Shown: in pieces, positions 7,323-55,330 of the stretch | Layout of the letters: each line of letters starts with the position of its first letter | How positions within the stretch are numbered: the stretch's first letter is position 1 | From: Hydrogenophilus sp. | Lineage (GTDB): Bacteria; Pseudomonadota; Gammaproteobacteria; Burkholderiales; Thiobacillaceae | Reading direction: 5' to 3' | Length of the DNA: 64,000 nt | NCBI GenBank assembly: GCA_020692235.1 | Contig: JAIMKU010000003.1 | Location: 358 to 64,357, forward strand | Made by a program: the position numbers and the translations under genes | Notes under the pieces: model-generated | The model's input: the letters and a program-made list of their open reading frames with translations, nothing else | Told to the model about the DNA's origin: nothing | Databases searched by the model: none

Positions 7323-9572
<2,250 letters not shown>

Positions 9573-11569: not shown

Positions 11570-14272
11570 TTAAGAAACGTGGCTGCATTGCGAGGCCGGG
11601 GTGCGGGTATCCATGTTGCGACCGCGATTGATGTGGTCGTCTATTTCACCGGCGCAGCCCGCCATGCGGCCAAACAGGAACGAGGTAAAGGCTGCCGTCT
11701 CCAGCGAGCTCTCACCCAGTTTGCCCTTGCGGAAGCGCGGCCACAGCAGTTTCAACAGCAGCGTGGCGATGACGGCATCGATGTTGACGCAGAAGACGTT
11801 CTTGGTCACACCGTTGTCGAACAAGGCCTGAACCACGGCCTTGTAGTAATCGTGAAAGACGTTCTTCTCGCCCCGCTCCGCGAACAACTGCGCGATGTAA
11901 ACCTCGCGCGGGTCATGGTTGACCACATGACCCTTGAATACCGGGTGGTTGACGCCGGGTATGTTGCGCACCGGCTGGCCAATCGCCTTGCCGGCCTTCT
12001 TCTCGTCGCCGAAGCGCTTGGCAAAACTCGTCGCCATTGCCTTGAGGTCGAGGCCGTGGTCGGCGGCACCGGCATCGGCCAGCTTGGTGTCGCCAAAGCT
12101 CTCGATCAGGAACTGGATGCCCTCGTAACCATTGCCGCCATGAGCGAAGCCGGTATGGGTGAGGAAGCCGAGCATGGCCTTGTTGATCTGCGCCCGCTCC
12201 GGCGATTCCGGACCGTCGGCCGATACCGCGCCCTTGCAGCCCTGGGCCGAGATGGTGCCGACGCCGTTGGAGATGATGAGGCCCAGCATCACCTGGAACG
12301 GGAACAGGCTGGCCGCTGTCGGCCGCTCGCCCATCAGGGCAAGATAGGCCAGCTCGGTAACGCTCCAGGATTCCAGCATCTCCTGATTGGCGATGCCGCA
12401 AAACTTGCCGGCCTGGTGCTTCTTGGCCTCGGCCGCCGCGCCGATAATCACCGCAAACAGGTGGGCATACCAAGGCAGATCGCGCACCGTCAGACGAGAG
12501 ATGCGTTTACGTATCAACGGCTCCCAGGCAATGGTCGTGGTCAACGCGGCAATCACTGCGTCTGTCGTTAGGTGTCCCTTCAGGGTACGCAGGTAGCGCA
12601 CAAAGGCCGATTTGCCGTGACGTTTGTCGAAGGCCTTGAGCATCGCCTCGGCCAAGGGGTCCGGGGCGCTGCCCAACAGGGTGGCAAGTTGCTTGGCACT
12701 GGCTTTTGCGGGGGCAATCTTGGCCCGTTCGTCTGCGCCGGCCGTCAGACCCGAGTGAGCGAATAGATCGATCAGGGTGTCGGCGGCCCGTCGCGCCCCA
12801 TCGACGCGCTTCGGACCGAGCAGGGCAACCGCTACGCCGATTGCCGTGTTGGGGGCGTTGCCGGCCTCGCGTGCCGCGTCGGCGGCGGCCAGCATGACTT
12901 CGCCGTGCAGGTTGACCCGCGCCGCAACCGCCAGGTTGAACAAGGCGTTATCGTTGGCGTCGTTGAGCTCCCGGACCAGCGACAGGCACAGGTTGGACTC
13001 CAGTGGCTGTTTGGCGGTATCCAGAATGGAGATACCGTTGACCTTGGTGATCTGGGTCTTCGGGTCCATCACCGAGCTGCCCGAGCAGTCCTTCATCGAC
13101 TGGCGCGGGAAGATGGCGCCCACCAGCTTGAGCAGTTCAGCGATCTGCGCGTCGTAGGGCGGCAGCGCCTTGACCACGGGGATATCCAGCTCGGCCGGCA
13201 GCTTCAGGCCCTGGTCGTCGCCGAACCACGGTTTCAGCTCCAGGTTGCCTTCGGGCGGGAAATCCCGCTCGACACCGTTCAGGTGCATGACTGCGGTCAG
13301 CGCCAGCGGTATGTGGGCGATATTGGTGACCACCGCACCGCGCTTCGAGCACACCGGGTGCTCTGGCGTGAACAGTTCGGTCACCCCGAATTTTTCCATG
13401 AACCAACGCTCTTTGGCCAAGGCGCCATCGCCCGATCCGGCGATGGCGCCGGCGTGGCCGACCGCCCGTGTCAGATTCGCCTTCCAGCGACCAACCACAC
13501 AGGCCACCACCGGCTTGTCAAAGGTAACATCTTCTTCGTAATAGCCGCCCGGCTCTGCATACATCACTGCCGCCTTGGTGCGCGCATCGTTGGCCATGGC
13601 GTAGGCGAACTCGGGGGCGGCGTAGTGGATGTAGACGTCCTTGCCGCTGGAGATCAACGTCGTCGTGCCCCAGCCGCCGATCGTCAGGTAATTGGCAATG
13701 GTGGTGGTGAAGTTGCCGGAGTTGGAGTAGATGGCGATGGAGCCTTTGCGCAAGGTCTCGGCGGGGTTATCGCCGCCCAGCGCGCCGCCGATGCGCACAT
13801 GGTTCCACGAATCCGCCACGCCCAGACAGTTGGCGCCGAAGATGTCCACCCCGCGCTGCTGACCGAGCGCCCGGATCTCACGGGCGTCATGCACCGATGT
13901 CTTCTCGGTGAGGATGACGACCTTGTCGACCTCGGGGTTGATCCGGATCAGCTCAGCGACGCCGTCGCGGACAGCGGATGGCGGCAGATAGACCACGCCG
14001 ACGTTGAATTTATGCCCGGCCTCCAGACCCTCGCGCACGTTGTTGTAGACCGGGATGTCGCCCAGCGGCGTCTCCAGGACTTGGCCGCGGCGCCCAGGCA
14101 TGGTGCCGAAGACCACGTTGCCGCCTGAATAGGTATGGCTGATCGGGGTGACCGAACGGGATTCGTTGCCCAGTATGTTCAGTACGCAGATGCGATCATC
14201 CGGGGTCGCAATCTCGGCCAGGGAACGAATTCCGACGAAGTATTTGAAGTGTACGATGCCAGGCTTTCTCAT
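11570..14272 (-). CDS. aclA: ATP-citrate lyase alpha subunit (long form)
   Basis: 900 aa; CoA-binding/SucD-like N-terminus (IFGANCLG, SNSGNFTT, VGHAGA phospho-His), citrate-synthase-like C-terminus (AHGGNG, PGVNHPVFK, VNIDAVIA). Confidence 0.92.
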   Translation of the reverse strand: MRKPGIVHFKYFVGIRSLAEIATPDDRICVLNILGNESRSVTPISHTYSGGNVVFGTMPGRRGQVLETPLGDIPVYNNVREGLEAGHKFNVGVVYLPPSAVRDGVAELIRINPEVDKVVILTEKTSVHDAREIRALGQQRGVDIFGANCLGVADSWNHVRIGGALGGDNPAETLRKGSIAIYSNSGNFTTTIANYLTIGGWGTTTLISSGKDVYIHYAAPEFAYAMANDARTKAAVMYAEPGGYYEEDVTFDKPVVACVVGRWKANLTRAVGHAGAIAGSGDGALAKERWFMEKFGVTELFTPEHPVCSKRGAVVTNIAHIPLALTAVMHLNGVERDFPPEGNLELKPWFGDDQGLKLPAELDIPVVKALPPYDAQIAELLKLVGAIFPRQSMKDCSGSSVMDPKTQITKVNGISILDTAKQPLESNLCLSLVRELNDANDNALFNLAVAARVNLHGEVMLAAADAAREAGNAPNTAIGVAVALLGPKRVDGARRAADTLIDLFAHSGLTAGADERAKIAPAKASAKQLATLLGSAPDPLAEAMLKAFDKRHGKSAFVRYLRTLKGHLTTDAVIAALTTTIAWEPLIRKRISRLTVRDLPWYAHLFAVIIGAAAEAKKHQAGKFCGIANQEMLESWSVTELAYLALMGERPTAASLFPFQVMLGLIISNGVGTISAQGCKGAVSADGPESPERAQINKAMLGFLTHTGFAHGGNGYEGIQFLIESFGDTKLADAGAADHGLDLKAMATSFAKRFGDEKKAGKAIGQPVRNIPGVNHPVFKGHVVNHDPREVYIAQLFAERGEKNVFHDYYKAVVQALFDNGVTKNVFCVNIDAVIATLLLKLLWPRFRKGKLGESSLETAAFTSFLFGRMAGCAGEIDDHINRGRNMDTRTPASQCSHVS

Positions 14273-14359
14273 TGCTTGTTACCTTTCGTCCATACGGCCA
14301 GGGGTGGGAAAATCACATCCAGCAAGCCGCTTTTCATGTGTTTTGGATTCTCGGTTGGA

Positions 14360-15640
14360 TCAGGCGTCGGTGGGTAGACCCAGCATCGTCGCAACCTGGG
14401 CCCGACCACCGCTCTTCATCCAGCGATCCGCCTCCTGGGCATAGGTCACCACATCGGTCATCGCCGAGTCGTAGCCGAACACCCGATAAGGCAGGCGCAA
14501 TGCGTCGAGGACATCCTTGAAGGCGCCCATGCCGCGAATCAAATTGGGGCCGCCACGACCGATCACCACGTAGACCGGCGTTGGTCCATGCTCGCTGAAG
14601 TACTCGCGCAGGGCATCGGCCATCGCCCGGAAGGTGACGAAGATGTCGGTGTTGTTGGCCTTACCGCCGATCACGAACAATACGTTCGACTGCTTGAGGT
14701 AGTATTTGAGGCAGATACGCATCACCTCTTTCATCTTCTCGTAGGGCGGATTGCCGCCGAAATCGGAAGAGATGATGGCATCGCTGCCCAGTACCTCGGT
14801 GACCAGAGAATTCGCGCCGCCGCCAAAGGTCGGCGCCAGGATGGTGCCTTTATCGTTGATGACATAGACATCGCTCTGGCCCTGGTAGGTGCGCAGTTCG
14901 TTGATATCCTGCTCGAAGTCGCTGACCTCGGTCATGAACAGGTCGGAAGGCAGGTTCAGGCGGCTGACCCGCGGATCGTCGCGGTCGAAGCCGCACTTGA
15001 AGTCGCAGGCCACCGGCAACAGGTGACCCGGCCGGTTTTCCGTCATCCGGATGGGATTGAGTTCCAGCGTCGTCATGCCGTAATGGTGAAACAGGTCCCA
15101 CAGCTTGGGCAGGTGCTGTACCAGCGGCGACACGATCTCACGCGGCGCCCCCAGGTCGGACAGCGCGTTGGAAATAACGAACGACGAGAGGCCGGTCAGC
15201 GGATCGAAAGGCACTTCGACGATCTGGCTCTTGTCCAGCTCCTCGATGTCCATGCCGCCGTGGTGAGTGAGCGTCATGGCTGGCGCCCGGTAACGGGTCG
15301 AGTCGGTGATCGAGAAATAGACCTCGTGGTTGGCCGGAACGGCACCCTCGAAGGTGACCCCGCGCGACTTGTAAACGGCTTTGCCTGACCGGTGCTCAAC
15401 AAAGTAGAGCCGTTCCTTCTCGGCCAACGCCGTTTTCAGATCGCTGGCGCGGCCGAGCAGCCCGGACTTGCCCTTTTTGCCCACGCCGCCCTTGAAGATC
15501 GGCTTGATGAAGACCGAACCGCAACGGTCGATCAGACTGTGGATTTCATTTTCGCCAGCCTCCGGGCCGAGTACCTCGGCGGCCGGAAAATCGACGATCT
15601 TGAGCATCCGTGCTCCATAGAGCATGCCACTGATGTTCAT
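14360..15640 (-). CDS. aclB: ATP-citrate lyase beta subunit
   Basis: 426 aa; ATP-grasp (FIKPIFKGGVGKKGKSGL, LELNP) and citrate-binding domain (FGGGANS, DFGGNP, IGGKANNTD, GRGGPN). Confidence 0.93.
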   Translation of the reverse strand: MNISGMLYGARMLKIVDFPAAEVLGPEAGENEIHSLIDRCGSVFIKPIFKGGVGKKGKSGLLGRASDLKTALAEKERLYFVEHRSGKAVYKSRGVTFEGAVPANHEVYFSITDSTRYRAPAMTLTHHGGMDIEELDKSQIVEVPFDPLTGLSSFVISNALSDLGAPREIVSPLVQHLPKLWDLFHHYGMTTLELNPIRMTENRPGHLLPVACDFKCGFDRDDPRVSRLNLPSDLFMTEVSDFEQDINELRTYQGQSDVYVINDKGTILAPTFGGGANSLVTEVLGSDAIISSDFGGNPPYEKMKEVMRICLKYYLKQSNVLFVIGGKANNTDIFVTFRAMADALREYFSEHGPTPVYVVIGRGGPNLIRGMGAFKDVLDALRLPYRVFGYDSAMTDVVTYAQEADRWMKSGGRAQVATMLGLPTDA

Positions 15641-27790: not shown

Positions 27791-28531
27791 TTATTCCGAA
27801 TCTCGTGCGTAATAGCGTTCCGACAAGGCTTCGCGGTCCATCGCCATCAGTTCGGCGTATTCCGCCTCATAGACACCCTCTTCCACCGCCTTGACGCGCT
27901 CCGCCAGTTCCGGGCTGTCCTTGCGCAGATAGCGGCCATAGAGGCGCTTCGCCAGGATGGCCATCAGGGGTTGGGTAATTTCGGCCGGGCAGCGCAACAT
28001 GCACAGACCGCAGACGACGCAGTCGAAGGACAGGTCCATCACCGCAGCGATGTCACCGCGCTTGGCGGCCTGGACGTAATCCATGACCTGGAGCCCCTGC
28101 GGACAGGACTTGGTGCAGGTGCCGCAGGCGACGCAGCGGAACACCGTCGGGTACATCTGCTGGATGGCGCTGACGTTCGGCCTGAGCTTCTCGATGTCGT
28201 AGATCGCCTTCTCGGCCGGAACAGAGGGTATCTGCGCCAGCGTCATGCCGTCCTCGACCAGGGTCATACAGGCCAGGCCGGCACGGATTTTGTAATCGCC
28301 GGGTAAACGGTAGAGGGTGGCGCAGGCGCCGCAATAGCCCTCGCGGCAACCGGCACCGCGGATGATCTGGTGGCCGGCATATTCGATGGCGCCCATGATG
28401 GTCGCCTCGGCCGGCACCTCATAGGCCTTGCCCATGATATATACCGTGATCAGTCGCTCCGCCGCCTCGCGCTCTCCGTCGACCGCCGAAGTCGATGGAC
28501 TGTTCGCTGTTCCCGCCGGCACGCCCGTCAT
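27791..28531 (-). CDS. tfrB: Fumarate reductase Fe-S subunit (TfrB-like, no membrane anchor)
   Basis: 246 aa; GCREGYCGAC...LAC (2Fe-2S), CVACGTCTKSCP, CVVCGLCMLRCP. Confidence 0.82.
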   Translation of the reverse strand: MTGVPAGTANSPSTSAVDGEREAAERLITVYIMGKAYEVPAEATIMGAIEYAGHQIIRGAGCREGYCGACATLYRLPGDYKIRAGLACMTLVEDGMTLAQIPSVPAEKAIYDIEKLRPNVSAIQQMYPTVFRCVACGTCTKSCPQGLQVMDYVQAAKRGDIAAVMDLSFDCVVCGLCMLRCPAEITQPLMAILAKRLYGRYLRKDSPELAERVKAVEEGVYEAEYAELMAMDREALSERYYARDSE

Positions 28532-28671: not shown

Positions 28672-28722
28672 ATCATAAAGAGCTTCGTTAAGGGTTGACA
28701 ATAGAGGATGTCGATATACGAT
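28672..28722. promoter_or_regulatory. Back-to-back sigma70-like promoters with overlapping -35 hexamers
   Basis: Plus strand: TTGACA (28695-28700)-N16-TACGAT (28717-28722). Minus strand: TTGTCA (28701-28696)-N18-TATGAT (28677-28672). Confidence 0.6.
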
Positions 28723-28828
28723 AAAAAAAATTAAATTACCCTTCATGGCCATACCAATTATCGTTGTCGTTTAGCGATGCCATCGCGATCGCATCGAATA
28801 TTTCCACCTTGCCGACTAGGAGACCTTC

Positions 28829-30841
28829 ATGGCCAAAGCCCCCGTTCGAGTCGCCGTAACTGGCGCCGCTGGGCAGATCGGTTATGCGCTGCTGCCTCGC
28901 ATTGCCAGCGGCGAAATGCTCGGCAAGGATCAGCCCATCATTCTGCAATTGCTCGAATTGCCCATGGACAAGGCGCAAAAGGCATTGAAGGGCATGATGA
29001 TGGAGCTGGAGGATTGCGCCTTTCCGCTCTTGATCGACATGATCGGCACCTCGGACCCCATGGTTGCCTTCAGGGATGCCCAACAAGCCTTGCTGGTCGG
29101 CGCCAAGCCGCGCGGCGCCGGCATGGAACGCAAGGATCTGCTGCTGGAAAACCCCAAGATTTTCATTGAACAAGGCAAGGCCATTGATCTGGTTGCCTCC
29201 CGCGACGTCAAGGTGGTGGTGCTCGGCAACCCATCCAATACCAACGCCCTCGTCACCATGAACGCGGCCAGGAGTCTGCCCAGAACCAGCTTCACCTCGT
29301 TGATGCGGTTGGACCACAATCGCGCCGCCGGCAAACTCGCGCAGCGCCTGGGCAAGCCGATCACCAGCATCGAAAATATGGTGGTGTGGGGCAATCACTC
29401 GCCCGCCATGTATCCGGACATCCGCTTTGCCACTATCGACGGCAAACATCCCCGTGAACTGCTGAACGAGGAAGACTGGTACCGGAGTGAATTCATCGAC
29501 GAGATTGGCAAACGCGGCGCCGCCATCATCGACGTCCGTGGCCTATCCTCCGCCGCCTCCGCAGCAGTCGCGGTCATCGACCATATGCGTGACTGGAACC
29601 TGGGGTCCAACGGCCACTGGGTCACCATGGGCGTCGTCTCCGACGGCTCCTACGGTATCCCGGTGGGCATGATCTACGGTTTTCCCTGCACCACCGCCAA
29701 CGGCAAGTGGGAGATCGTCAAGAACCTGGAAATCGACGCCTTCTCGCGCACCAAAATGGACGCCTCGCTGAAAGAACTGCAAGAGGAATACATGATCGCG
29801 TCGAGTATCTTTGCGCCCGAAATCGCCGCGCAAAACGTCAAAGACCTGCTTCACCCAACCGACGTGCTCTACGCCGGTGGCCGCCCTTCGCCGCTGCTGG
29901 CTGCCTGCGAACACTATGCCGGCAGCGAGAAGCTACTTAGAAAAGCGCTCAAGATTCAAACCGAGCTACTGACCAACGAGCAGCCAGTCTTCGACATCAC
30001 CGCCGATTGTGAGGACGGCGCCCCCGCCGGCAAGGAACGGGAACACGCGGTCATGATCGCCGATCTGATCCTGTCCGACGACAATCGTTATGACCGCGTC
30101 GGCGTGCGCATCCACGATGTCGACCATCCGCACTGGCGCGACGAGTTGGAGATCATCATCGGCCGGGCCGGTCAGCGCGTGGCCTACATCGGCCTGTCCA
30201 AGCCGGAAAACGCCGACGACGTCCAAACCCAGATCAGCGCGCTCAATGAGCTAAGGGACCAATACGGCATTACCCGCGAGATACCCGTTCACGTCCTGAT
30301 CGAGACCCCGGGGGCGCTCCATGAAGTGTGGCAAATCGCCGGCCTACCGCATATCGAGGTCCTCAATTTCGGCATCATGGACTTCGTTTCCGAGCATCAC
30401 GGCGCCATTCCCGCCGCCGCCATGAGCTCGCCCGGCCAATTCAGCCACTCGCTTATCGTCCGCGCCAAGAGCGAGATCGTCGCCGCCGCACTGGCTCACG
30501 GCATCGTACCCAGCCACAACATCACCACCGAGATACGCGACCTCAACGTGGTGCGGGAAGATGCTCGCCGCGCCCGAATGGAGTTCGGCTTCCTGCGCAT
30601 GTGGAGCATCCATCCGAACCAGATACTGCCCATCGTCGAAGCCATGCAGCCGAACTTTGCCGAAGTCAACGAGGCCATCACCCTACTGATCGCCGCCCAA
30701 AACACCGCCTGGGGGCCAATCCAATGGGAAGGCAAGCTGCACGATCGTGCCTCCTACCGCTACTACTGGGAGCTACTACAACGCGCCCGCGCAACCGGGA
30801 TGGACATCCCGGCGGAGGTCGTCCAGCGTTTCTTTGCCTGA
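28829..30841 (+). CDS. mdh: Fusion of malate dehydrogenase and an HpcH/HpaI-CitE-family CoA-ester lyase
   Basis: 670 aa uninterrupted ORF. MDH half: [30 protein letters not shown]. Lyase half from about aa 335: [33 protein letters not shown]. Confidence 0.88.
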
Positions 30842-30942
30842 ACCGTTACCCAAACGGATCAGGCAGAATCAATCGACCCAAGCGATCGGCCTATCCGAGC
30901 CCGGCCCGTTTCATTGAACGTGTCGGCCATCCGAATACGCCG

Positions 30943-30965
30943 TGTGCGTAAATCTGACGTACAAT
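30943..30965 (+). promoter_or_regulatory. Probable autoregulatory operator overlapping the -10 of the TA operon
   Basis: TGTGCGT-N7-ACGTACA imperfect palindrome (1 mismatch) overlapping TACAAT (30960-30965). Confidence 0.5.
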
Positions 30966-30995
30966 GCTCTCGTCCGTAAATCGGGAGCAACAGCC

Positions 30996-31262
30996 ATGTC
31001 AGCAACCACCACCAATGAATCGTCGCGCATCAATTTGCGCACCAGCGCCGATACCAAAGCCATGATCGAGCGCGCCGCCGCGCTGATGGGGACGACCGTT
31101 TCCGGCTTCATGCTGCAGAACGCATACGAGGCGGCGCGGCGCGTGGTGTCGGACTACGACACCCTCATGCTCAGCCAGCGCGACTTTGAGGCATTCGCCG
31201 CCTCCATGGAAAAACCGCCCAAACCGAAAGCCGCATTGCGCAAACTCATGGCGCGCCGCTAA
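30996..31262 (+). CDS. DUF1778-family (TacA/AtaR-like) antitoxin
   Basis: 88 aa; SSRINLRTS...IERAAALMGTTVSGFML...LSQRDFEAFAASMEKPPKPKAALRKLM. Confidence 0.9.
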   Translation: MSATTTNESSRINLRTSADTKAMIERAAALMGTTVSGFMLQNAYEAARRVVSDYDTLMLSQRDFEAFAASMEKPPKPKAALRKLMARR

Positions 31263-31264
31263 AC

Positions 31265-31759
31265 GTGGCAGTCATCCAACTGCTCGGCAGGCAGCACAAC
31301 CGCAACGGGTTCGATTGCGGCGACGCGGCGCTGAACGATTTTTTGCAGCGCCAGGCAGGCCAGCAACAACGGCGCGGCTTCGGTAAAACCTATGTGGCAC
31401 TTGCCGATGATGGCGTAACCGTCATTGGCTTCGTCACAGTAAGCGCGGGCCAGATCGCCACGGCAGCGCTGCCCGCCCAGTCAAAGCTACCGCGCCACCC
31501 CGCCCCCATTTTGCGCATCGGTCGCCTGGCGGTGGATGCCCGCCATCAGGGCAAAGGCATCGGCCAAGACCTGCTGGCATTCGCATTGCGCCTGGCGGTG
31601 GAATTTTCGCAGCGCGTGGGGCTATATGCCGTTGTGGTCGATACCAAACACGAGAAGGCCAAAGCATTTTATGCCAAGCATGGATTCATCGCCTGCATGG
31701 ATAGTCCGCTGGCGCTGTATCTGCCGGTTGCCACGTTGGAGCAGGCTGCTGGGACTTAA
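31265..31759 (+). CDS. GNAT acetyltransferase toxin (TacT/AtaT-like)
   Basis: 164 aa; FDCGDAALNDFL, ILRIGRLAVDARHQGKGIG, VVVDTK...AFY.KHGF. Confidence 0.9.
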   Translation: MAVIQLLGRQHNRNGFDCGDAALNDFLQRQAGQQQRRGFGKTYVALADDGVTVIGFVTVSAGQIATAALPAQSKLPRHPAPILRIGRLAVDARHQGKGIGQDLLAFALRLAVEFSQRVGLYAVVVDTKHEKAKAFYAKHGFIACMDSPLALYLPVATLEQAAGT

Positions 31760-48765: not shown

Positions 48766-49430
48766 ATGAAGACAAAATTTACCGACCTTTTCATCAAGCG
48801 CCCGGTGCAGCCCAGATTGCAGGCCGTGGAAGGTGTGCAAACGGCCGAGATTCTGGGTGCGAAAAACTTCGCCCTGCGGGCCTGGCTGAATCCACAAAAG
48901 CTCGCCGCCTACAGCCTGACCGCAACCGACATCTACGCGGCGCTGGCGGCCAACAACTACCTGGCCTCGACCGGCAACGCCAAAGGCCAGATGGTGCAGA
49001 TCAACCTGGCCGCCGATACCGACTTGAAGTCGCTCGACGGCTTCAAGAACCTGGTGGTGAAGTCGGCGGCCGGCCAGGTCGTGCGGCTGAACGATGTGGC
49101 CACGGTCGCCATGGGTGCGGACGATCATGAAACCGCCGTGGCCTTCGACGGCAAGGCCTCGGTATTCGTCGGCATTCAGGTCGCGCCAGGCGCCAACCTG
49201 CTCGACGTCGTCGCCCGGGTGCGCAAGGTCTTGCAGGACATCCAGTCGCAACTGCCGGTCGGCTTGAAGGGCGGCGTTATTTACGACTCGACCAAGTTCG
49301 TCAACGCCTCGATAAACGAGGTGGTCAAGACCCTGGCGGAGGCCGTTCTGATCGTCACCCTGGTGGTGTTTGCCTTCCTCGGCTCATTGCGTTCGGTAAT
49401 CATTCCCCTGATCGCTATTCCGCTATCCAT
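48766..49430 (+). pseudogene. RND permease remnant with internal and 3' deletions
   Basis: MKTKFTDLFIKRPV joins directly to QPRLQAVEGV...; homology ends at IIPLIAIPLS (end of TM3). Confidence 0.85.
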
Positions 49431-49566
49431 CTCCGACCTCGATTTGATTGCCGCCGGTGCATTGAGTACCGGTGTCGTCGCCGACCAGGGGGTGATAGGC
49501 CAAGGCAGGACCAGACAGGCCGAGCGCGGCGGCGAAAACGGTCAACAGCTCGAATCGGGTAGCCAT
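49423..49566 (-). pseudogene. 5' remnant of an exported/outer-membrane transporter-family protein
   Basis: Signal peptide plus YHPLVGDDTGTQ..GGNQIE, then an abrupt stop inside the RND remnant. Confidence 0.55.
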
Positions 49567-49574
49567 GAAGCCGG

Positions 49575-50231
49575 CTATCTCAGGCTGATGACCGGCCAGC
49601 CTGCGGCCTGGGCGTGGGCCAGGAGCGTGGCGTCCGGGTCGACCGCAACCGGGTGTCGCACCCGGGCGAGCAGGGGCAGGTCGTTGAGCGAATCGCTGTA
49701 GAACCAGCTCTCGGTGACGGTAGCCAAGTTTTCCCCTTGCCCGGTCAGCCATTGTTCCAGGCGCGTCACCTTGCCGTCCTTGAACGACGGCAGGCCGGAA
49801 ACCTTGCCAGTGAATTCGCCGCCCACCTGTTCCGGTTCGGTGGCGATGAGATGCTCGACCCCCAGGTAGTGGGCAATAGGTGCGGTGACGAAGCTATTGG
49901 TGGCGGTAACGATGACCCGGGTATCGCCGACATGTCGCGCCAGCAGGGCCGGTGCGCCCTTGGCGACCATCGGGACGATCCGGGTCCGCATGTATTCATC
50001 GTGCCAGGCATCCAGTTGGGCGCGGGGATGATGGGCCAGTGGCTTGAGCTGGAAGTCGAGAAACTCGTGAATGTCCAGGGTGCCGGACTTGTATTGGTCG
50101 TAAAACGTTTGATTTTTGGCCTCGTACAACTCCCGATCCAGGACGCCCTTCTCGATCAGGAACTGGGCCCACTCGAAATCGGAATCGCCCGCCAGCAGGG
50201 TGTTATCGAGGTCGAAAAGCGCAAGTCTCAT
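49575..50231 (-). CDS. HAD-IB family phosphatase
   Basis: LFDLDNTLL, VTAT, YSDSLNDLPLL. Confidence 0.92.
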   Translation of the reverse strand: MRLALFDLDNTLLAGDSDFEWAQFLIEKGVLDRELYEAKNQTFYDQYKSGTLDIHEFLDFQLKPLAHHPRAQLDAWHDEYMRTRIVPMVAKGAPALLARHVGDTRVIVTATNSFVTAPIAHYLGVEHLIATEPEQVGGEFTGKVSGLPSFKDGKVTRLEQWLTGQGENLATVTESWFYSDSLNDLPLLARVRHPVAVDPDATLLAHAQAAGWPVISLR

Positions 50232-51446: not shown

Positions 51447-52655
51447 ATGTCCCATCTCGTCAAACCCCACGGTGGTGGTGAACTCAAACCCCTGCGGCTC
51501 GAAGGCGCCGCCCGAAAAACCGAACTAGCCCGCGCCAAGGCGCTCAAGCAGGTGAAGATGTCCTCCCGCGAGACCGGCGACCTCATCATGATGGGCATCG
51601 GCGGTTTCACCCCGCTCGACGGTTTCATGACCAAGGCCGACTGGCAAGGCGTCTGTGATGGGATGAAAACAAGCAGCGGCCTGTTCTGGCCCATCCCGGT
51701 GACCCTTTCGACCGACGACGAGTCCATCAAGGACGGCGACGACATCGCCTTGGTCGGCGGTGAGAGCGGCGAGATCATGGGCACCATGAAGGTAACCGAG
51801 AAGTACACCATCGACAAGGCCCACGAGTGCATGCAGGTCTACAAGACCACCGACATCAAGCACCCCGGCATCAAGATGGTGATGGCCCAGGGCAAGTACA
51901 ACCTGGCCGGCCCGGTCAAGGTCCTGTCCGATGGCGGCTTCAAGGCCAAATACGGCGCGCAATTCATGACCCCCGCCGAGACCCGCGCCGCCTTTGAAAA
52001 AATGGGCTGGTCGAAGGTCGCCGCCTTCCAGACCCGCAACCCGATGCACCGCTCGCACGAATACCTGGTCAAGATCGCCATCGAGACCATGGATGGCGTG
52101 CTGATACACTCCCTGCTGGGCGCCCTGAAGCCAGGTGACATCCCGGCCGAGGTCCGTTCCGAGGCGATCTCCACCCTGGTCGAAAATTACTTCGCTCCCA
52201 ATACCGTCATTCAGGCCGGCTATCCGCTGGACATGCGCTATGCCGGTCCGCGTGAAGCCCTGTTGCACGCGCTGTTCCGCCAGAACTACGGCTGCTCGCA
52301 CCTGATCGTCGGTCGCGACCACGCTGGCGTGGGCGACTACTACGGCCCCTTCGACGCCCAGAAAATCTTCGACGAGATTCCCAAGGGCTCGCTGGAAACC
52401 CAGAACATGAACATCGACTGGACCTTCTGGTGCAAGAAGTGCGGCGGCATGGCCTCGCGGCGTACCTGCCCGCACACCAAGGATGACCGCATCCTGCTGT
52501 CCGGCACCAAGGTGCGCGCGATGCTATCCGAAGGCCAGGACCTGCCGGTCGAATTCAGTCGTCCGGAAGTCGCTGCGGTGCTCAAGAAGTACTACGCCAG
52601 CCTGACCAAGGAACAAAACGTCAAGATCGAACTCAAGGGCCACTCGGCCGCTTGA
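51447..52655 (+). CDS. sat: Sulfate adenylyltransferase (dissimilatory type)
   Basis: [25 protein letters not shown]...CPH. Confidence 0.96.
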
Positions 52656-52703
52656 TGTGGGGCGGGCTTTAGCCCGACGGGTCGGCCCAGTGGCCGGCCC
52701 ACA
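52656..52703. repeat. REP-like palindromic doublet (second copy degenerate)
   Basis: TGTGGGGCGGGCTTTAGCCCGAC...GTCGGCCC...GGCCCACA directly after the sat stop. Confidence 0.55.
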
Positions 52704-52827
52704 CTATGGAATTTAGAATACCGGACTCGCCGGAAGCGGAATCGCGATACGCCCCGGCTAAGGTGTGGTTCGGCGTCTGAACGGACCGCTGACACAGCGG
52801 ATTGTTAGCTAACAAGGAGAGTATGTA

Positions 52828-53301
52828 ATGCCTACCTATGTTCGTACCGACAAGTGCGACGGTTGCAAGGGCCAGGACAAGACCGCTTGCATGTACATCT
52901 GCCCGCACGACCTGATGAAGCTGGACAAGGATGGTTCGGAAACCGGTCACGCCATGAAGGCCTTCAACCAGGAACCCGATCAGTGCTGGGAATGTTATTC
53001 CTGCGTGAAGATTTGCCCGCAGCAGGCCATCGAAGTCCGCCACTACGCCGACATCGTTCCTCTGGGCGGTTCAGTTCAGCCTCTGCGCGGTTCCGACTCC
53101 ATCATGTGGACCATCAAGTTCCGTAATGGCACCCTGAAGCGCTTCAAGTTCCCGATCCGGACCACCCCCGAGGGCTCCATCGATCCCTACGCCGGCAAGC
53201 CCATGCCCAAGATAGCAGACATCGAAAAGCCTGGCTTCTTCACCAAGGGCTACGCCAAGGGCTATCGTGCCGGCAACCCGGCCGAATTGATACGCAAGTA
53301 A
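52828..53301 (+). CDS. aprB: Adenylylsulfate reductase beta subunit
   Basis: CDGCKGQDKTACMYICPHDLM, CWECYSCVKICP, WTIKFRNG..KRFKFPIRTT. Confidence 0.96.
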   Translation: MPTYVRTDKCDGCKGQDKTACMYICPHDLMKLDKDGSETGHAMKAFNQEPDQCWECYSCVKICPQQAIEVRHYADIVPLGGSVQPLRGSDSIMWTIKFRNGTLKRFKFPIRTTPEGSIDPYAGKPMPKIADIEKPGFFTKGYAKGYRAGNPAELIRK

Positions 53302-53320
53302 TCCAAGAAGGGGAAAGATA

Positions 53321-55330
53321 ATGGCTGATTTTTCTAATCCAGAAGTAGTTCAGGAAGAAGTTGACATCCTGATAATCGGTGGCGGTATGGCCTCTTGCGG
53401 CGCCGCCTATGAAGTCGTGCGTTGGGCCGAAGCCGCGAAAGCGGAAACCGGCGTTGATCTGAAGATCAAGTTGGTCGACAAGGCCGCCATTGACCGTTCC
53501 GGCGCCGTGGCTCAAGGCCTGTCCGCCATCAACACCTACATCGGCGATACGCAAGACCCCGCCGACTACGCTCGTATGGTCTCCAATGACTTGATGGGCA
53601 TCACCCGCGACGACCTGACCTATGACTGCGGTCGCCACGTCGACGACTCCGTGCACATGTTTGAAGAGTGGGGCCTGCCCATTTGGAAGACCGACGAAAA
53701 CGGCGAGCGTCACGACGGCGCCCAGGGCATGACCCCGCTGAAGGACGGCGGCAAGTGCGTACGTTCCGGCAAGTGGCAGATCATGATCAACGGCGAATCC
53801 TACAAGTGGATCGTCGCCGAGGCCGCCAAGAAGGCACTGGGTCTGGATCGCATTCAGGAACGCGTTTTCATCGTTCACCTGATCAACGACAAGAACGACC
53901 CCAACCGCATCGCCGGCGCAGCCGGTTTCTCCGTCCGCGAGAACAAGGTCTACATCTACAAGGCCAAGGCCATCCTGCTGGCCGCCGGCGGTTGCGTGAA
54001 CATCTTCCGTCCCCGTTCCGTTGGCGAAGGCCAAGGTCGTGTCTGGTACGCGGTGTGGAATGCCGGTTCGACCTACGCCATGGCTGCCGAGGCCGGCGCC
54101 GAGCTGACCATGATGGAAAACCGCTTCGTGCCCGCCCGCTTCAAGGACGGTTACGGCCCGGTCGGTACCTGGTTCCTGCTGTTCAAGGCTCAGGCCACCA
54201 ACGCCTTCGGCGAGGCCTACATGGCCAAGAACAAGGACATGCTGAACGACTACCCGCCCTATGGCCAGGCTGCCGTTCCCGCTTCCTGTCTGCGTAACCA
54301 CCTGATGTTGCACGAAATGCAGGAAGGTCGCGGCCCGATATGGATGGACACCATCACGGCCCTCGCCAAAATGCGCAAGAAACTGACCCCACGTGAAGTG
54401 AAGAACCTCGAGGCGGAAGCCTGGGAAGACTTCCTCGACATGTCCGTCGGCCAATGCGGCATCTGGGTCGGCGAAAACGTCGATCCGGGAAAGAAGAAGT
54501 CCGAGTTGATGCCGACCGAGCCCTACCTCCTGGGTTCGCACTCCGGTTGCTGTGGCATGTGGGTATCCGGCCCGACCGACGTCGGCGCGCCAACCAAGGA
54601 AGAGTATAGCGGCGTCCCCGCTCACCTGCCGAGCGGCTGGAGCTGGGGCTATCGTAGCATGACCACCGTCAAGGGCCTGTTCACGGCCGGTGATGGCGTC
54701 GGTGCCTCCGGCCACAAGTTCTCCTCCGGCTCCCATGCCGAAGGTCGTATCGCGGCCAAGGGCATGGTCAAGTATTGCTTGGACAACAAGGGCTTCAAAC
54801 CGGAATTCAACGAAACCCCGGAGCAAATTGCCGAGGTCATCTGGAAGCCGGTACGTAACTACCTGGAGTTCAAGGACTACACGACAGCGATCGATGTCAA
54901 CCCCAACTACATCACCCCGAAGATGTTGCAGTTCCGTCTGCAAAAGATCATGGACGAATATGTAGCCGGTATCGCCACCTACTACAAGACCAACAACGTC
55001 ATGCTCGACATCGCCGAAGAGAAGTTGGGTTTCCTGAAGGAAGACGCTCAGAAGATGCGTGCCAAGGACCTGCACGAACTGCTGCGCGCCTGGGAAAACT
55101 ACCACCGCATTCTGACGGCCGAAGCCCACATGAAGCACATCCAGTTCCGCGAAGAAAGCCGTTATCCCGGCTTCTACTACCGCATGGACAAGAACTTTGT
55201 CGATGAGAAAAACTGGCACTGCTTCGTCAACTCGATCTATGACAAGAAGACCCACACCTGGACCTGCTTCAAGCGCAAGCACGTCGACCTGGTCGACAAG
55301 TCCAAGCTGTTCAAGGCCGCTGCTCACTAA
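53321..55330 (+). CDS. aprA: Adenylylsulfate reductase alpha subunit
   Basis: RSGAVAQGLSAINTY, WQIMINGESYK, RFKDGYGPVG, EPYLLGSHSG, ESRYPGFYYR. Confidence 0.97.
   Translation: MADFSNPEVVQEEVDILIIGGGMASCGAAYEVVRWAEAAKAETGVDLKIKLVDKAAIDRSGAVAQGLSAINTYIGDTQDPADYARMVSNDLMGITRDDLTYDCGRHVDDSVHMFEEWGLPIWKTDENGERHDGAQGMTPLKDGGKCVRSGKWQIMINGESYKWIVAEAAKKALGLDRIQERVFIVHLINDKNDPNRIAGAAGFSVRENKVYIYKAKAILLAAGGCVNIFRPRSVGEGQGRVWYAVWNAGSTYAMAAEAGAELTMMENRFVPARFKDGYGPVGTWFLLFKAQATNAFGEAYMAKNKDMLNDYPPYGQAAVPASCLRNHLMLHEMQEGRGPIWMDTITALAKMRKKLTPREVKNLEAEAWEDFLDMSVGQCGIWVGENVDPGKKKSELMPTEPYLLGSHSGCCGMWVSGPTDVGAPTKEEYSGVPAHLPSGWSWGYRSMTTVKGLFTAGDGVGASGHKFSSGSHAEGRIAAKGMVKYCLDNKGFKPEFNETPEQIAEVIWKPVRNYLEFKDYTTAIDVNPNYITPKMLQFRLQKIMDEYVAGIATYYKTNNVMLDIAEEKLGFLKEDAQKMRAKDLHELLRAWENYHRILTAEAHMKHIQFREESRYPGFYYRMDKNFVDEKNWHCFVNSIYDKKTHTWTCFKRKHVDLVDKSKLFKAAAH

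Follow-up and report, generated by a model that had tools for sequence, protein, structure and literature searches.

Within the 64,000-nt stretch of Hydrogenophilus sp. DNA analysed here (contig JAIMKU010000003.1, positions 358–64,357; hereafter the window, to which all coordinates refer), a single forward-strand gene at 28829–30841 joins a malate dehydrogenase (MDH) in frame to a CitE-like CoA-ester lyase. Substitution patterns and retained catalytic motifs indicate that the fusion is under strong purifying selection and is kept as a genuine bifunctional protein. Our best overall explanation, which we hold with some reserve and at a little under an even chance, is a selected bifunctional MDH–lyase that arose through a single 2-nt insertion and handles malyl-CoA at the malate node. 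The architecture appears to be undescribed, both component families being known; a literature search for an MDH fused to a CitE-like protein found no paper.

Architecture of the fused protein

The ORF listing gives 28829–30841 (+) as one uninterrupted, ATG-started open reading frame (ORF) of 670 amino acids, with no stop and no frame change. An earlier note on this DNA had described a single 670-aa MDH/CitE-like ORF with intact MDH motifs, a short linker and a complete lyase domain. The ORF listing and relatives with the same frame agree with the first part of that description, and motif, profile and PDB matches agree with the rest; the linker quoted in the note corresponds to residues 325–340.

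The MDH domain spans 28829–29794 (+), residues 1–322. By score and motifs it is a full member of the bacterial NAD-dependent MDHs of the PRK05442/TIGR01759 type (Thermus, betaproteobacterial type): it scores 499 bits against NCBIfam NF003916 (cut-off 271), covering model positions 1–321 of 328, and 433.8 bits against TIGR01759 (cut-off 345.65), and it matches Pfam Ldh_1_N and Ldh_1_C. The motifs comprise GAAGQIG (residues 12–18), Glu43 (LQLLELP), Arg95 and Arg101 (PRGAGMER), Asp162 and Arg165 (RLDHNRA) and His190 (WGNHS), among them what we take to be the NAD-binding GxxGxxG, the substrate arginines and the catalytic His–Asp pair. GAAGQIG, PRG.GMER, RLDHNRA and WGNHS are kept in all fused proteins. 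Unlike other MDHs of this type, the fusion has a linker in place of the last eight tail residues (...DGVKHLFA); the canonical tail (...EE(R/Q)DGVKHLFA and a stop) is not present, and frame-shifted linker sequence runs from residue 322 onward. The last MDH helix is still predicted, at residues 304–327 of the AlphaFold model.

The lyase domain occupies 29837–30838 (+), residues 337–670, and is followed by the TGA stop codon of the fusion at 30839–30841 (+). Residues ~341–670 match PDB entry 3QQW, a 'putative citrate lyase', with an E-value of 3e-130 over chain residues 6–330 of 332 (residues 17–345 in domain numbering), and 3R4I with 3e-109. These two proteins, from Ralstonia eutropha JMP134 (Cupriavidus) and Burkholderia xenovorans, respectively, align end to end with the lyase half and belong to the same clade, sharing with it a clade-specific N-terminal segment, LHP..LYAG...AACEH.AGSEKL; they are stand-alone proteins of ~335 aa, whereas the lyase of the fusion is covalently joined to MDH. 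The clade is compact, with 161 clusters (50% identity) at E ≤ 1e-30 among 1.84 billion representatives, and no other fusion partner domain occurs in the best 150 of 1722 matches in that collection. PMC3832036 lists both structures as 'CitE-like' and assigns them no function, and a literature search on the function of 3QQW/3R4I or of mdh-adjacent citE genes in Betaproteobacteria found nothing beyond that listing. 'CitE' is the name that automatic annotation gives to the stand-alone relatives.

Pfam HpcH_HpaI (PF03328) is matched at 30.1 bits (cut-off 25) over residues 393–583, and all seven active-site residues of the superfamily are present: Asp393, Glu395 and Asp396 (DCEDG), Arg427 (GVRIH), Glu492 (LIET), Asp518 (GIMDF) and the lid residue Asp639 (LHDRAS). 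In the alignment with the malyl-CoA lyase of R. sphaeroides (4L9Y), their counterparts are Asp42, Glu44, Asp45, Arg76, Glu141, Asp168 and Asp299. According to Zarzycki and Kerfeld, the malate synthases and the entire CitE-like superfamily share these residues (PMC3832036), and they are conserved in all fused proteins. With the catalytic residues of both halves retained, both would be expected to be catalytically active.

Assignment to a characterized family is less clear-cut. The best curated hidden Markov model (HMM) match is the RipC/Ccl (S)-citramalyl-CoA lyase model NF038242 (43.2 bits, cut-off 375), ahead of the haloarchaeal malyl-CoA lyase model NF041626 (29 bits, cut-off 500) and TIGR01588 for CitE proper (24.5 bits, cut-off 443.4). 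The fusion thus lies far below the cut-off for the CitE beta subunit, with which it shares the superfamily and an aldol-type chemistry. No CitD or CitF gene is present among the annotated ORFs of the window, which was not searched exhaustively for them. Ranked by E-value, the characterized relatives are 4L9Y (7e-16, 61 bits), 5UGR (5e-10), 4L7Z (2e-8) and human CLYBL (4e-4). The malyl-CoA lyases (4L9Y/4L9Z, 5UGR, 4L7Z) share the catalytic and Mg-binding residues and the lid Asp299 with the fusion, but the match is weak, 61 bits for the best of them being too little for membership by close similarity, and the fusion locus has no ethylmalonyl-CoA or 3-hydroxypropionate pathway context. Glu in place of Asp at the catalytic lid position marks the malyl-CoA thioesterase clade of R. 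sphaeroides (PMC3832036); this Mcl2-type Glu is not present, and Asp639 is found in all copies. As a discriminator between lyase and thioesterase the lid residue proved uninformative, Asp being common to lyases, malate synthases and CLYBL.

An AlphaFold2 monomer model, built from a 61-sequence alignment, contains two confident domains (mean pLDDT 85; mostly 85–95 in the MDH domain) joined by a flexible linker of ~27 residues (329–355, pLDDT below 50). No docking of the domains onto each other is predicted (pTM 0.54, with no fixed interdomain orientation). Members of the fused clade differ in linker sequence, but their linkers agree in length to within 1–2 residues. MDHs of this family are dimeric. 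CitE-like enzymes are obligate trimers through a lid swap and usually dimers of trimers (PMC3832036), and 3QQW and 3R4I have six chains each. From the geometry of MDH dimers and CitE-like trimers, we infer that the fusion could form a hexamer-based particle in which the two halves are held at a fixed 1:1 stoichiometry.

Conservation of the junction

The evidence on the junction comes from assembled contigs rather than raw reads, in which minority variants could stay hidden. An identical, indel-free fused frame was found in loci L001, L008, L004, L009 and L089 and in seven further metagenome loci (L090–L096). The fused genes of L001 and L008 are 95–96% identical in nucleotide sequence to that of the window; L001, from the metagenome-assembled genome (MAG) 'Hydrogenophilaceae bacterium CG1_02_62_390', has the same 670-codon frame without an indel at 95% DNA identity. 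In the protein collection, eight clusters are fused over their full length (P0121–P0128; 670–672 aa, 80–96% identity), and two further fused proteins are cut by contig ends. The architecture is rare, these being eight clusters among 5.8 billion proteins, and the hosts are a small group of groundwater sulfur and iron bacteria.

Logan contigs from three aquifer-metagenome runs have no differences from the window over 29400–30200, and in a fourth run a variant differs over the same interval by substitutions alone. Metatranscriptome contigs, ~93% alike, also cross the junction without gaps, one example covering 28829–30058. The earlier note had proposed a search for full-length fused homologues and a check of reads across ~29790–29850: the search returned more than 12 independent assemblies and the eight protein clusters, and the check, carried out on the Logan DNA and metatranscriptome contigs, detected no indel. 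A sequencing or assembly error at the junction is rejected on the agreement of independent assemblies, Logan contigs and RNA contigs.

Between the window and the 95%-identical L001, the ratio of non-synonymous to synonymous substitution rates (omega) is 0.058 overall, 0.081 in the MDH domain and 0.046 in the lyase domain. Codons 323–345 in the linker differ by five synonymous and no non-synonymous changes. In the NCBI annotation, the calls cover just the last 331 aa in L001 (6001–6996) and the last 325 aa in L004 (8001–8978), leaving the MDH part of the 670/671-aa ORF without a protein call, so that the fusion is invisible in those public records.

Two other candidates for fusion were examined and rejected. 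P0130 (669 aa, 56% identity; locus L088) would have been a second, independent fusion, but sdhA, prpB, prpC and aconitase are all fragmented on the same contig. P0340 is a frame-scrambled read-through. Both look like indel artefacts and serve as a warning that the mdh–lyase pair readily fuses by indel error.

Origin of the fusion

Comparison with unfused relatives establishes how the junction arose. The MDHs of these relatives end in KEL(Q/T)EE(R/Q)DGVKHLFA and a stop, whereas the fused proteins read KELQEEY(M/T)IAS(S/T).(F/C).PE...Q...(D/N)L.HP at the same place. In the nucleotide alignment, the fused genes have two extra nucleotides directly 3' of the Glu-Glu-Tyr codons, where L005 and L122, the closest unfused relatives, have a gap; in the window this founding frameshift site lies at 29789–29794 (+), codons Tyr321–Met322. 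The old mdh TGA aligns with (CC)N-GAA, found within CCC GAA (Pro330–Glu331) in the window. In L005 and L122 the mdh TGA is followed by the lyase ATG within ~20 nt (19 nt in L005), and the lyase frame is already open backwards over the mdh tail. Read in that frame, the L005 mdh tail is MLASGICSPDFTKTPH-MNSLLHP, recognizable as the fused linker, including MLASGICSPDF, which matches it. The former lyase start codon is now Val, Ile or Pro in the fused genes (Val337 in the window).

The events ran as follows. In the ancestor, mdh and the CitE-like lyase gene lay ~20 nt apart. A 2-nt insertion just 3' of the Glu-Glu-Tyr321 codons then shifted the mdh frame, replacing the last eight MDH residues (...ACIRHLFA) and converting the mdh stop TGA to (CC)T-GA(A), or Pro-Glu. 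Translation ran on over the spacer and into the lyase. The start codon of the lyase later decayed to Val, Ile or Pro, and the junction became the ~27-residue flexible linker. A single 2-nt insertion is enough, since no stop codon interrupted the lyase frame over the mdh tail. The linker region of the window, 29795–29893 (+), residues 323–355, consists of the former mdh tail in the +1 frame, the former ~20-nt spacer, the former lyase start and the first lyase residues.

In a neighbour-joining tree of lyase domains, all 13 fused sequences form one clade in 99 of 100 bootstraps, so the fusion event happened once. The sister group consists of stand-alone, Gallionellaceae-type lyase genes, and the earliest-branching fused lineage is represented by L093 and L095, with a P0127-like open frame of 672–675 aa. 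The fusion provides a clean, datable case in which a 2-nt insertion turned a stop codon into linker residues.

Genomic context of the fusion and of its lyase clade

The earlier note had placed the gene divergent from a reductive tricarboxylic acid (rTCA) operon, and the annotated genes bear this out: frdB, at 27791–28531 (−), heads an operon of rTCA type at 7323–28531 (−) that runs away from the fused gene. Its order is frdB, frdA, rubrerythrin, hdrC-like, hdrB-like, korA, korB, korG, hdrA, a 4Fe-4S protein, hydB/hydG-like, aclB-like, an aclA-like 900-aa gene, aconitase and monomeric isocitrate dehydrogenase. A betaproteobacterium thus carries a complete operon of the reductive-TCA style. The fumarate reductase is of the soluble type with HdrB/C-like subunits, korABG encodes 2-oxoglutarate:ferredoxin oxidoreductase, and the beta and gamma subunits encoded by the hyd genes are sulfhydrogenase-like. 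The same arrangement is found beside the fused gene in L001, L004, L008, L009, L089, L090–L092 and L096. A literature search on rTCA in Hydrogenophilales and Gallionellaceae found nothing on the lyase gene or on such an operon.

The ATP-citrate lyase (ACL)-like gene pair in the operon, 11570–15640 (−), lies ~15 kb from the fused gene and is of the type called 'postulated type II ACL'. ATP-grasp and Citrate_bind domains are recognized in its 426-aa small subunit. The N-terminus of the large subunit (900 aa) matches the small subunit of citryl-CoA synthetase (CCS; 6HXQ_A, 5e-33) better than ACL alpha (2e-11), and its C-terminus gives sub-threshold matches to citryl-CoA lyase (28.8 bits) and Citrate_synt (17.9 bits); residues 300–900 have no PDB sequence match. 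We ourselves read PGVNHPVF..HDPRE and VNIDAV in this subunit as similar to the motifs that hold the catalytic His and Asp in citrate synthase. The type II ACL of Magnetococcus (Mmc1_3638/3639) and the citryl-CoA synthetase and lyase of Hydrogenobacter are systems of the kind encoded in this operon. Their lyase domain has the citrate synthase fold, not the CitE fold of the fusion.

Across 80 GTDB species loci of the lyase clade, mdh, a stop codon and the lyase follow one another in 57, the two are fused in 2, and 21 have no mdh upstream; the earlier note's statement that mdh and a citE-like gene are often separate neighbours therefore holds for 57 of the 80. These pairs lie inside an sdh/acnB TCA cluster (Rhodocyclaceae, including Dechloromonas, Azonexus and Accumulibacter, Methyloversatilis and others). 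In many Gallionellaceae the lyase is 3' of pycA-pycB and 5' of pntAB. A conserved pycA-pycB-lyase-pntA-pntB-aldehyde dehydrogenase cluster, with pyruvate:ferredoxin oxidoreductase and pyruvate phosphate dikinase genes nearby, occurs in L006/L007, L011 and L012, the hosts being Ca. Ferrigenium straubiae and other Nitrosomonadales; the L012 version has acquired a restriction-modification methylase gene that separates pycB from the lyase. Four Gallionellaceae MAGs (L014, L018, L020 and L022; Sideroxyarcus, Sideroxydans, Gallionella) carry a stand-alone lyase divergent from a frd-hdrCB-korABG-hdrA operon, with no mdh there. What these loci have in common is the oxaloacetate/malate node rather than the reverse cycle in itself.

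Among fused loci, L089 (a 397-kb JGI contig) has a class I fumarase gene (12057–13574) directly 3' of the fused gene. Enzymes for oxaloacetate to malate to fumarate thus stand in one transcription unit, facing the fumarate reductase operon. L093 and L095 lie between a ubiB/Tim44-like pair and a sodium:solute symporter with an ABC transporter. The noisy contig of L088 carries gltA and sucAB, with the methylcitrate-cycle genes prpB, prpC and prpD directly downstream of its mdh–lyase pair.

The fusion acts as a 'Rosetta stone' that ties the orphan 3QQW/3R4I clade, known from two crystal structures and from genes within Rhodocyclaceae TCA clusters (Dechloromonas, Azonexus, Accumulibacter), to the (reverse) citric acid cycle at its oxaloacetate/malate step.

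Possible substrate and role of the lyase half

We rank malyl-CoA first as the substrate, tentatively, followed by citryl-CoA as the less likely candidate, with the remaining probability falling to other substrates. Malyl-CoA takes this place because the nearest characterized sequences are malyl-CoA lyases, because CLYBL offers a precedent and because a need for clearance would arise in the reverse cycle. Bacterial succinyl-CoA ligase is reported to make malyl-CoA from malate, and CLYBL, an efficient and specific malyl-CoA thioesterase, clears the malyl-CoA that succinyl-CoA ligase and the 2-oxoglutarate dehydrogenase complex produce (bioRxiv 10.1101/2024.09.25.614871). CLYBL is our favoured functional model: like the fusion's lyase it is CitE-like, has the lid Asp, stands outside any citrate lyase complex and acts at the TCA cycle. 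It differs in being very distant in sequence, mitochondrial and unfused, and in acting also as a citramalyl-CoA lyase in itaconate breakdown.

By analogy, malyl-CoA, a hydroxylated counterpart of succinyl-CoA, would arise when succinyl-CoA synthetase acts on malate in a side reaction. The lyase half would remove or convert (S)-malyl-CoA by hydrolysis or cleavage, and the malate produced would go straight back to the attached MDH. In the reverse cycle, succinyl-CoA synthetase runs in the ester-forming direction with malate present, which would make the need for clearance high. If this is correct, the metabolite-repair function newly proposed for human CLYBL extends to bacteria.

Several observations weigh against malyl-CoA handling or against parts of the picture built on it: (i) The conserved residues do not separate lyase from thioesterase, or malyl-CoA from citryl-CoA or citramalyl-CoA. 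(ii) The lid carries Asp, whereas Glu is usual in the malyl-CoA thioesterase clade of R. sphaeroides. (iii) No succinyl-CoA synthetase gene stands beside the lyase in any of the loci examined. (iv) The pyruvate carboxylase context in Gallionellaceae suggests oxaloacetate as the shared metabolite, which fits citryl-CoA equally well or better. (v) L093 and L095 show no TCA or rTCA genes in the stretch examined. (vi) The proposed hexamer is a matter of geometry, and a model with a pTM of 0.54 yields no domain orientation.

The earlier note had inferred that citryl-CoA cleavage would give oxaloacetate and that its channelling to MDH is plausible, and had named malyl-CoA handling, which we place first, as the alternative. 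In the citryl-CoA model the lyase half would be a CitE-type citryl-CoA lyase working with a CCS/ACL-like ligase, and MDH, by reducing oxaloacetate, would pull citrate cleavage in the rTCA direction. We find this possible but do not favour it, and consider it unlikely, because the ACL-like enzyme has a citrate-synthase-like domain of its own and most clade members lie outside rTCA neighbourhoods. Much of the genomic context is nonetheless consistent with it. Most of the long fused loci are divergent from the frd-kor-ACL operon, the stand-alone lyases of the four Gallionellaceae loci without mdh hold the same position, and oxaloacetate is common to MDH and pyruvate carboxylase, the commonest neighbours of the lyase. 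The ACL-like large subunit is also equivocal. Its N-terminus is closer to the citryl-CoA synthetase small subunit than to ACL alpha, and its C-terminus is too divergent for above-threshold detection of citrate synthase by Pfam or PDB searches; type II ACL itself is only 'postulated' (PMC6783814). Set against this are the citryl-CoA lyase and Citrate_synt matches of that same C-terminus, together with the citrate-synthase-like His and Asp motifs that we read there. The lyase half, moreover, falls short of the model for true CitE (24.5 against 443 bits) and, among characterized proteins, is nearest in sequence to malyl-CoA lyases. Its clade is found mostly in oxidative-TCA or anaplerotic loci, being common in Rhodocyclaceae with oxidative-TCA neighbours (sdh, acnB) and having its structures from Cupriavidus and Burkholderia, and the fused loci L093 and L095 are without rTCA context. 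The lyase half probably does not carry out citrate cleavage in the cycle.

A more elaborate version, which we regard as rather doubtful, is a three-part system of citrate cleavage in the rTCA cycle, in which a CCS-like 'type II ACL' ligase would form citryl-CoA, the CitE-fold domain would split it and the attached MDH would reduce the oxaloacetate. We found no indication here that a type II ACL-like system needs a CitE-like partner. Were it true, the fusion would be a natural MDH–lyase metabolon and contain the first CitE-type citryl-CoA lyase in an autotrophic cycle, and the orphan 3QQW/3R4I clade would have a function. Splitting of citryl-CoA by the lyase half would mean that the reverse TCA cycle with 'type II ACL', a poorly understood version, has to be drawn differently, and the fusion offers a simple test case for that version of the cycle.

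Alternatively, the fusion may be a tolerated accident without kinetic meaning, whatever the substrate. The two enzymes would act independently, the lyase perhaps in a job unrelated to MDH, and the joined gene would persist because it is harmless or because it equalizes expression. None of the 13 fused sequences has reverted, although they have diverged by ~20% at the amino-acid level; this makes an accident improbable in our view, as do a linker length held within 1–2 residues and an omega of 0–0.02 at the junction; the conserved adjacency of mdh and lyase across Betaproteobacteria likewise argues for a functional link. An accident would nevertheless have been easy, as one 2-nt insertion in a tightly packed, co-transcribed pair suffices, and it would fit a fusion confined to a single narrow clade while 57 of 80 species loci keep the genes separate. 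The freely varying linker sequence and the lack of a fixed domain contact in the AlphaFold model (pTM 0.54) point the same way.

The lyase half may instead catalyse another reaction, with (S)-citramalyl-CoA or beta-methylmalyl-CoA as substrate, a malate synthase-like condensation of glyoxylate with acetyl-CoA, or a CoA-independent decarboxylation or enolization of oxaloacetate. CitE-like enzymes are promiscuous (PMC3832036), the best curated HMM match is to RipC/Ccl of the itaconate pathway (43 bits), and prpB, prpC and prpD lie directly downstream in L088, an error-ridden contig. Every match to a curated model is, however, far under its cut-off, and no itaconate, CoA-transferase or glyoxylate-forming genes stand beside the lyase in the loci examined. 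An oxaloacetate decarboxylase in the same operon as pyruvate carboxylase would form a futile pair. We judge such reactions quite unlikely.

Finally, the reading of the junction as an assembly or sequencing error, or as a decaying mdh that lost its stop, is largely refuted and most improbable: the C-terminal calls in the NCBI records of L001 and L004 and the error-driven pseudo-fusions of the same gene pair on noisy contigs (P0130/L088, P0340) speak for it, but over 12 independent assemblies, drawn from several studies, share the frame with the RNA contigs, the MDH half has an omega of 0.08 with catalytic motifs intact in all copies, and this conservation is explained without invoking another mdh.

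Expression signals and other features

A Shine-Dalgarno sequence, AGGAG, is read at 28818–28822 (+), 6 nt 5' of the ATG of the fusion. The 297-nt divergent intergenic region contains a candidate sigma-70-like promoter, TTGACA-16 nt-TACGAT, at 28695–28722 (+), with 10 of 12 consensus matches, although such sites are no more frequent than in shuffled sequence; this promoter-like stretch is also conserved in L001. A mirror promoter-like site for the frd operon lies at 28701–28672 (−), on the basis of a consensus match. Within the gene, GAGGAA-5 nt-ATG at 29783–29794 (+) reads as a candidate internal ribosome-binding site and start codon (Met322), from which, speculatively, a free 349-aa lyase could be made. 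Met322 is confined to the window/L001/L008/P0121 lineage, and the remaining fused proteins have Thr or Val there.

Between the fused gene and pdxJ, 30942–31759 (+) encodes a TacA-type antitoxin (106 aa) and a GNAT toxin-like acetyltransferase (164 aa). The pair is not at this spot in L001 and L008 (95% identical), where pdxJ abuts the fused gene, and it therefore looks like a recent insertion.

Elsewhere in the window, sat (ATP sulfurylase), aprB and aprA (adenylyl-sulfate reductase) at 51447–55330 (+) fit a sulfur-oxidizing lifestyle. A 311-aa ORF at 48766–49701 (+) matches just positions ~150–370 of RND efflux permeases of ~1020 aa and is probably a gene fragment. Outside the window, P0145 (573 aa, on a 77.7-kb ENA contig) combines PEP_mutase/isocitrate-lyase and MDH domains and may represent a further MDH fusion, in this case at the glyoxylate/malate node.

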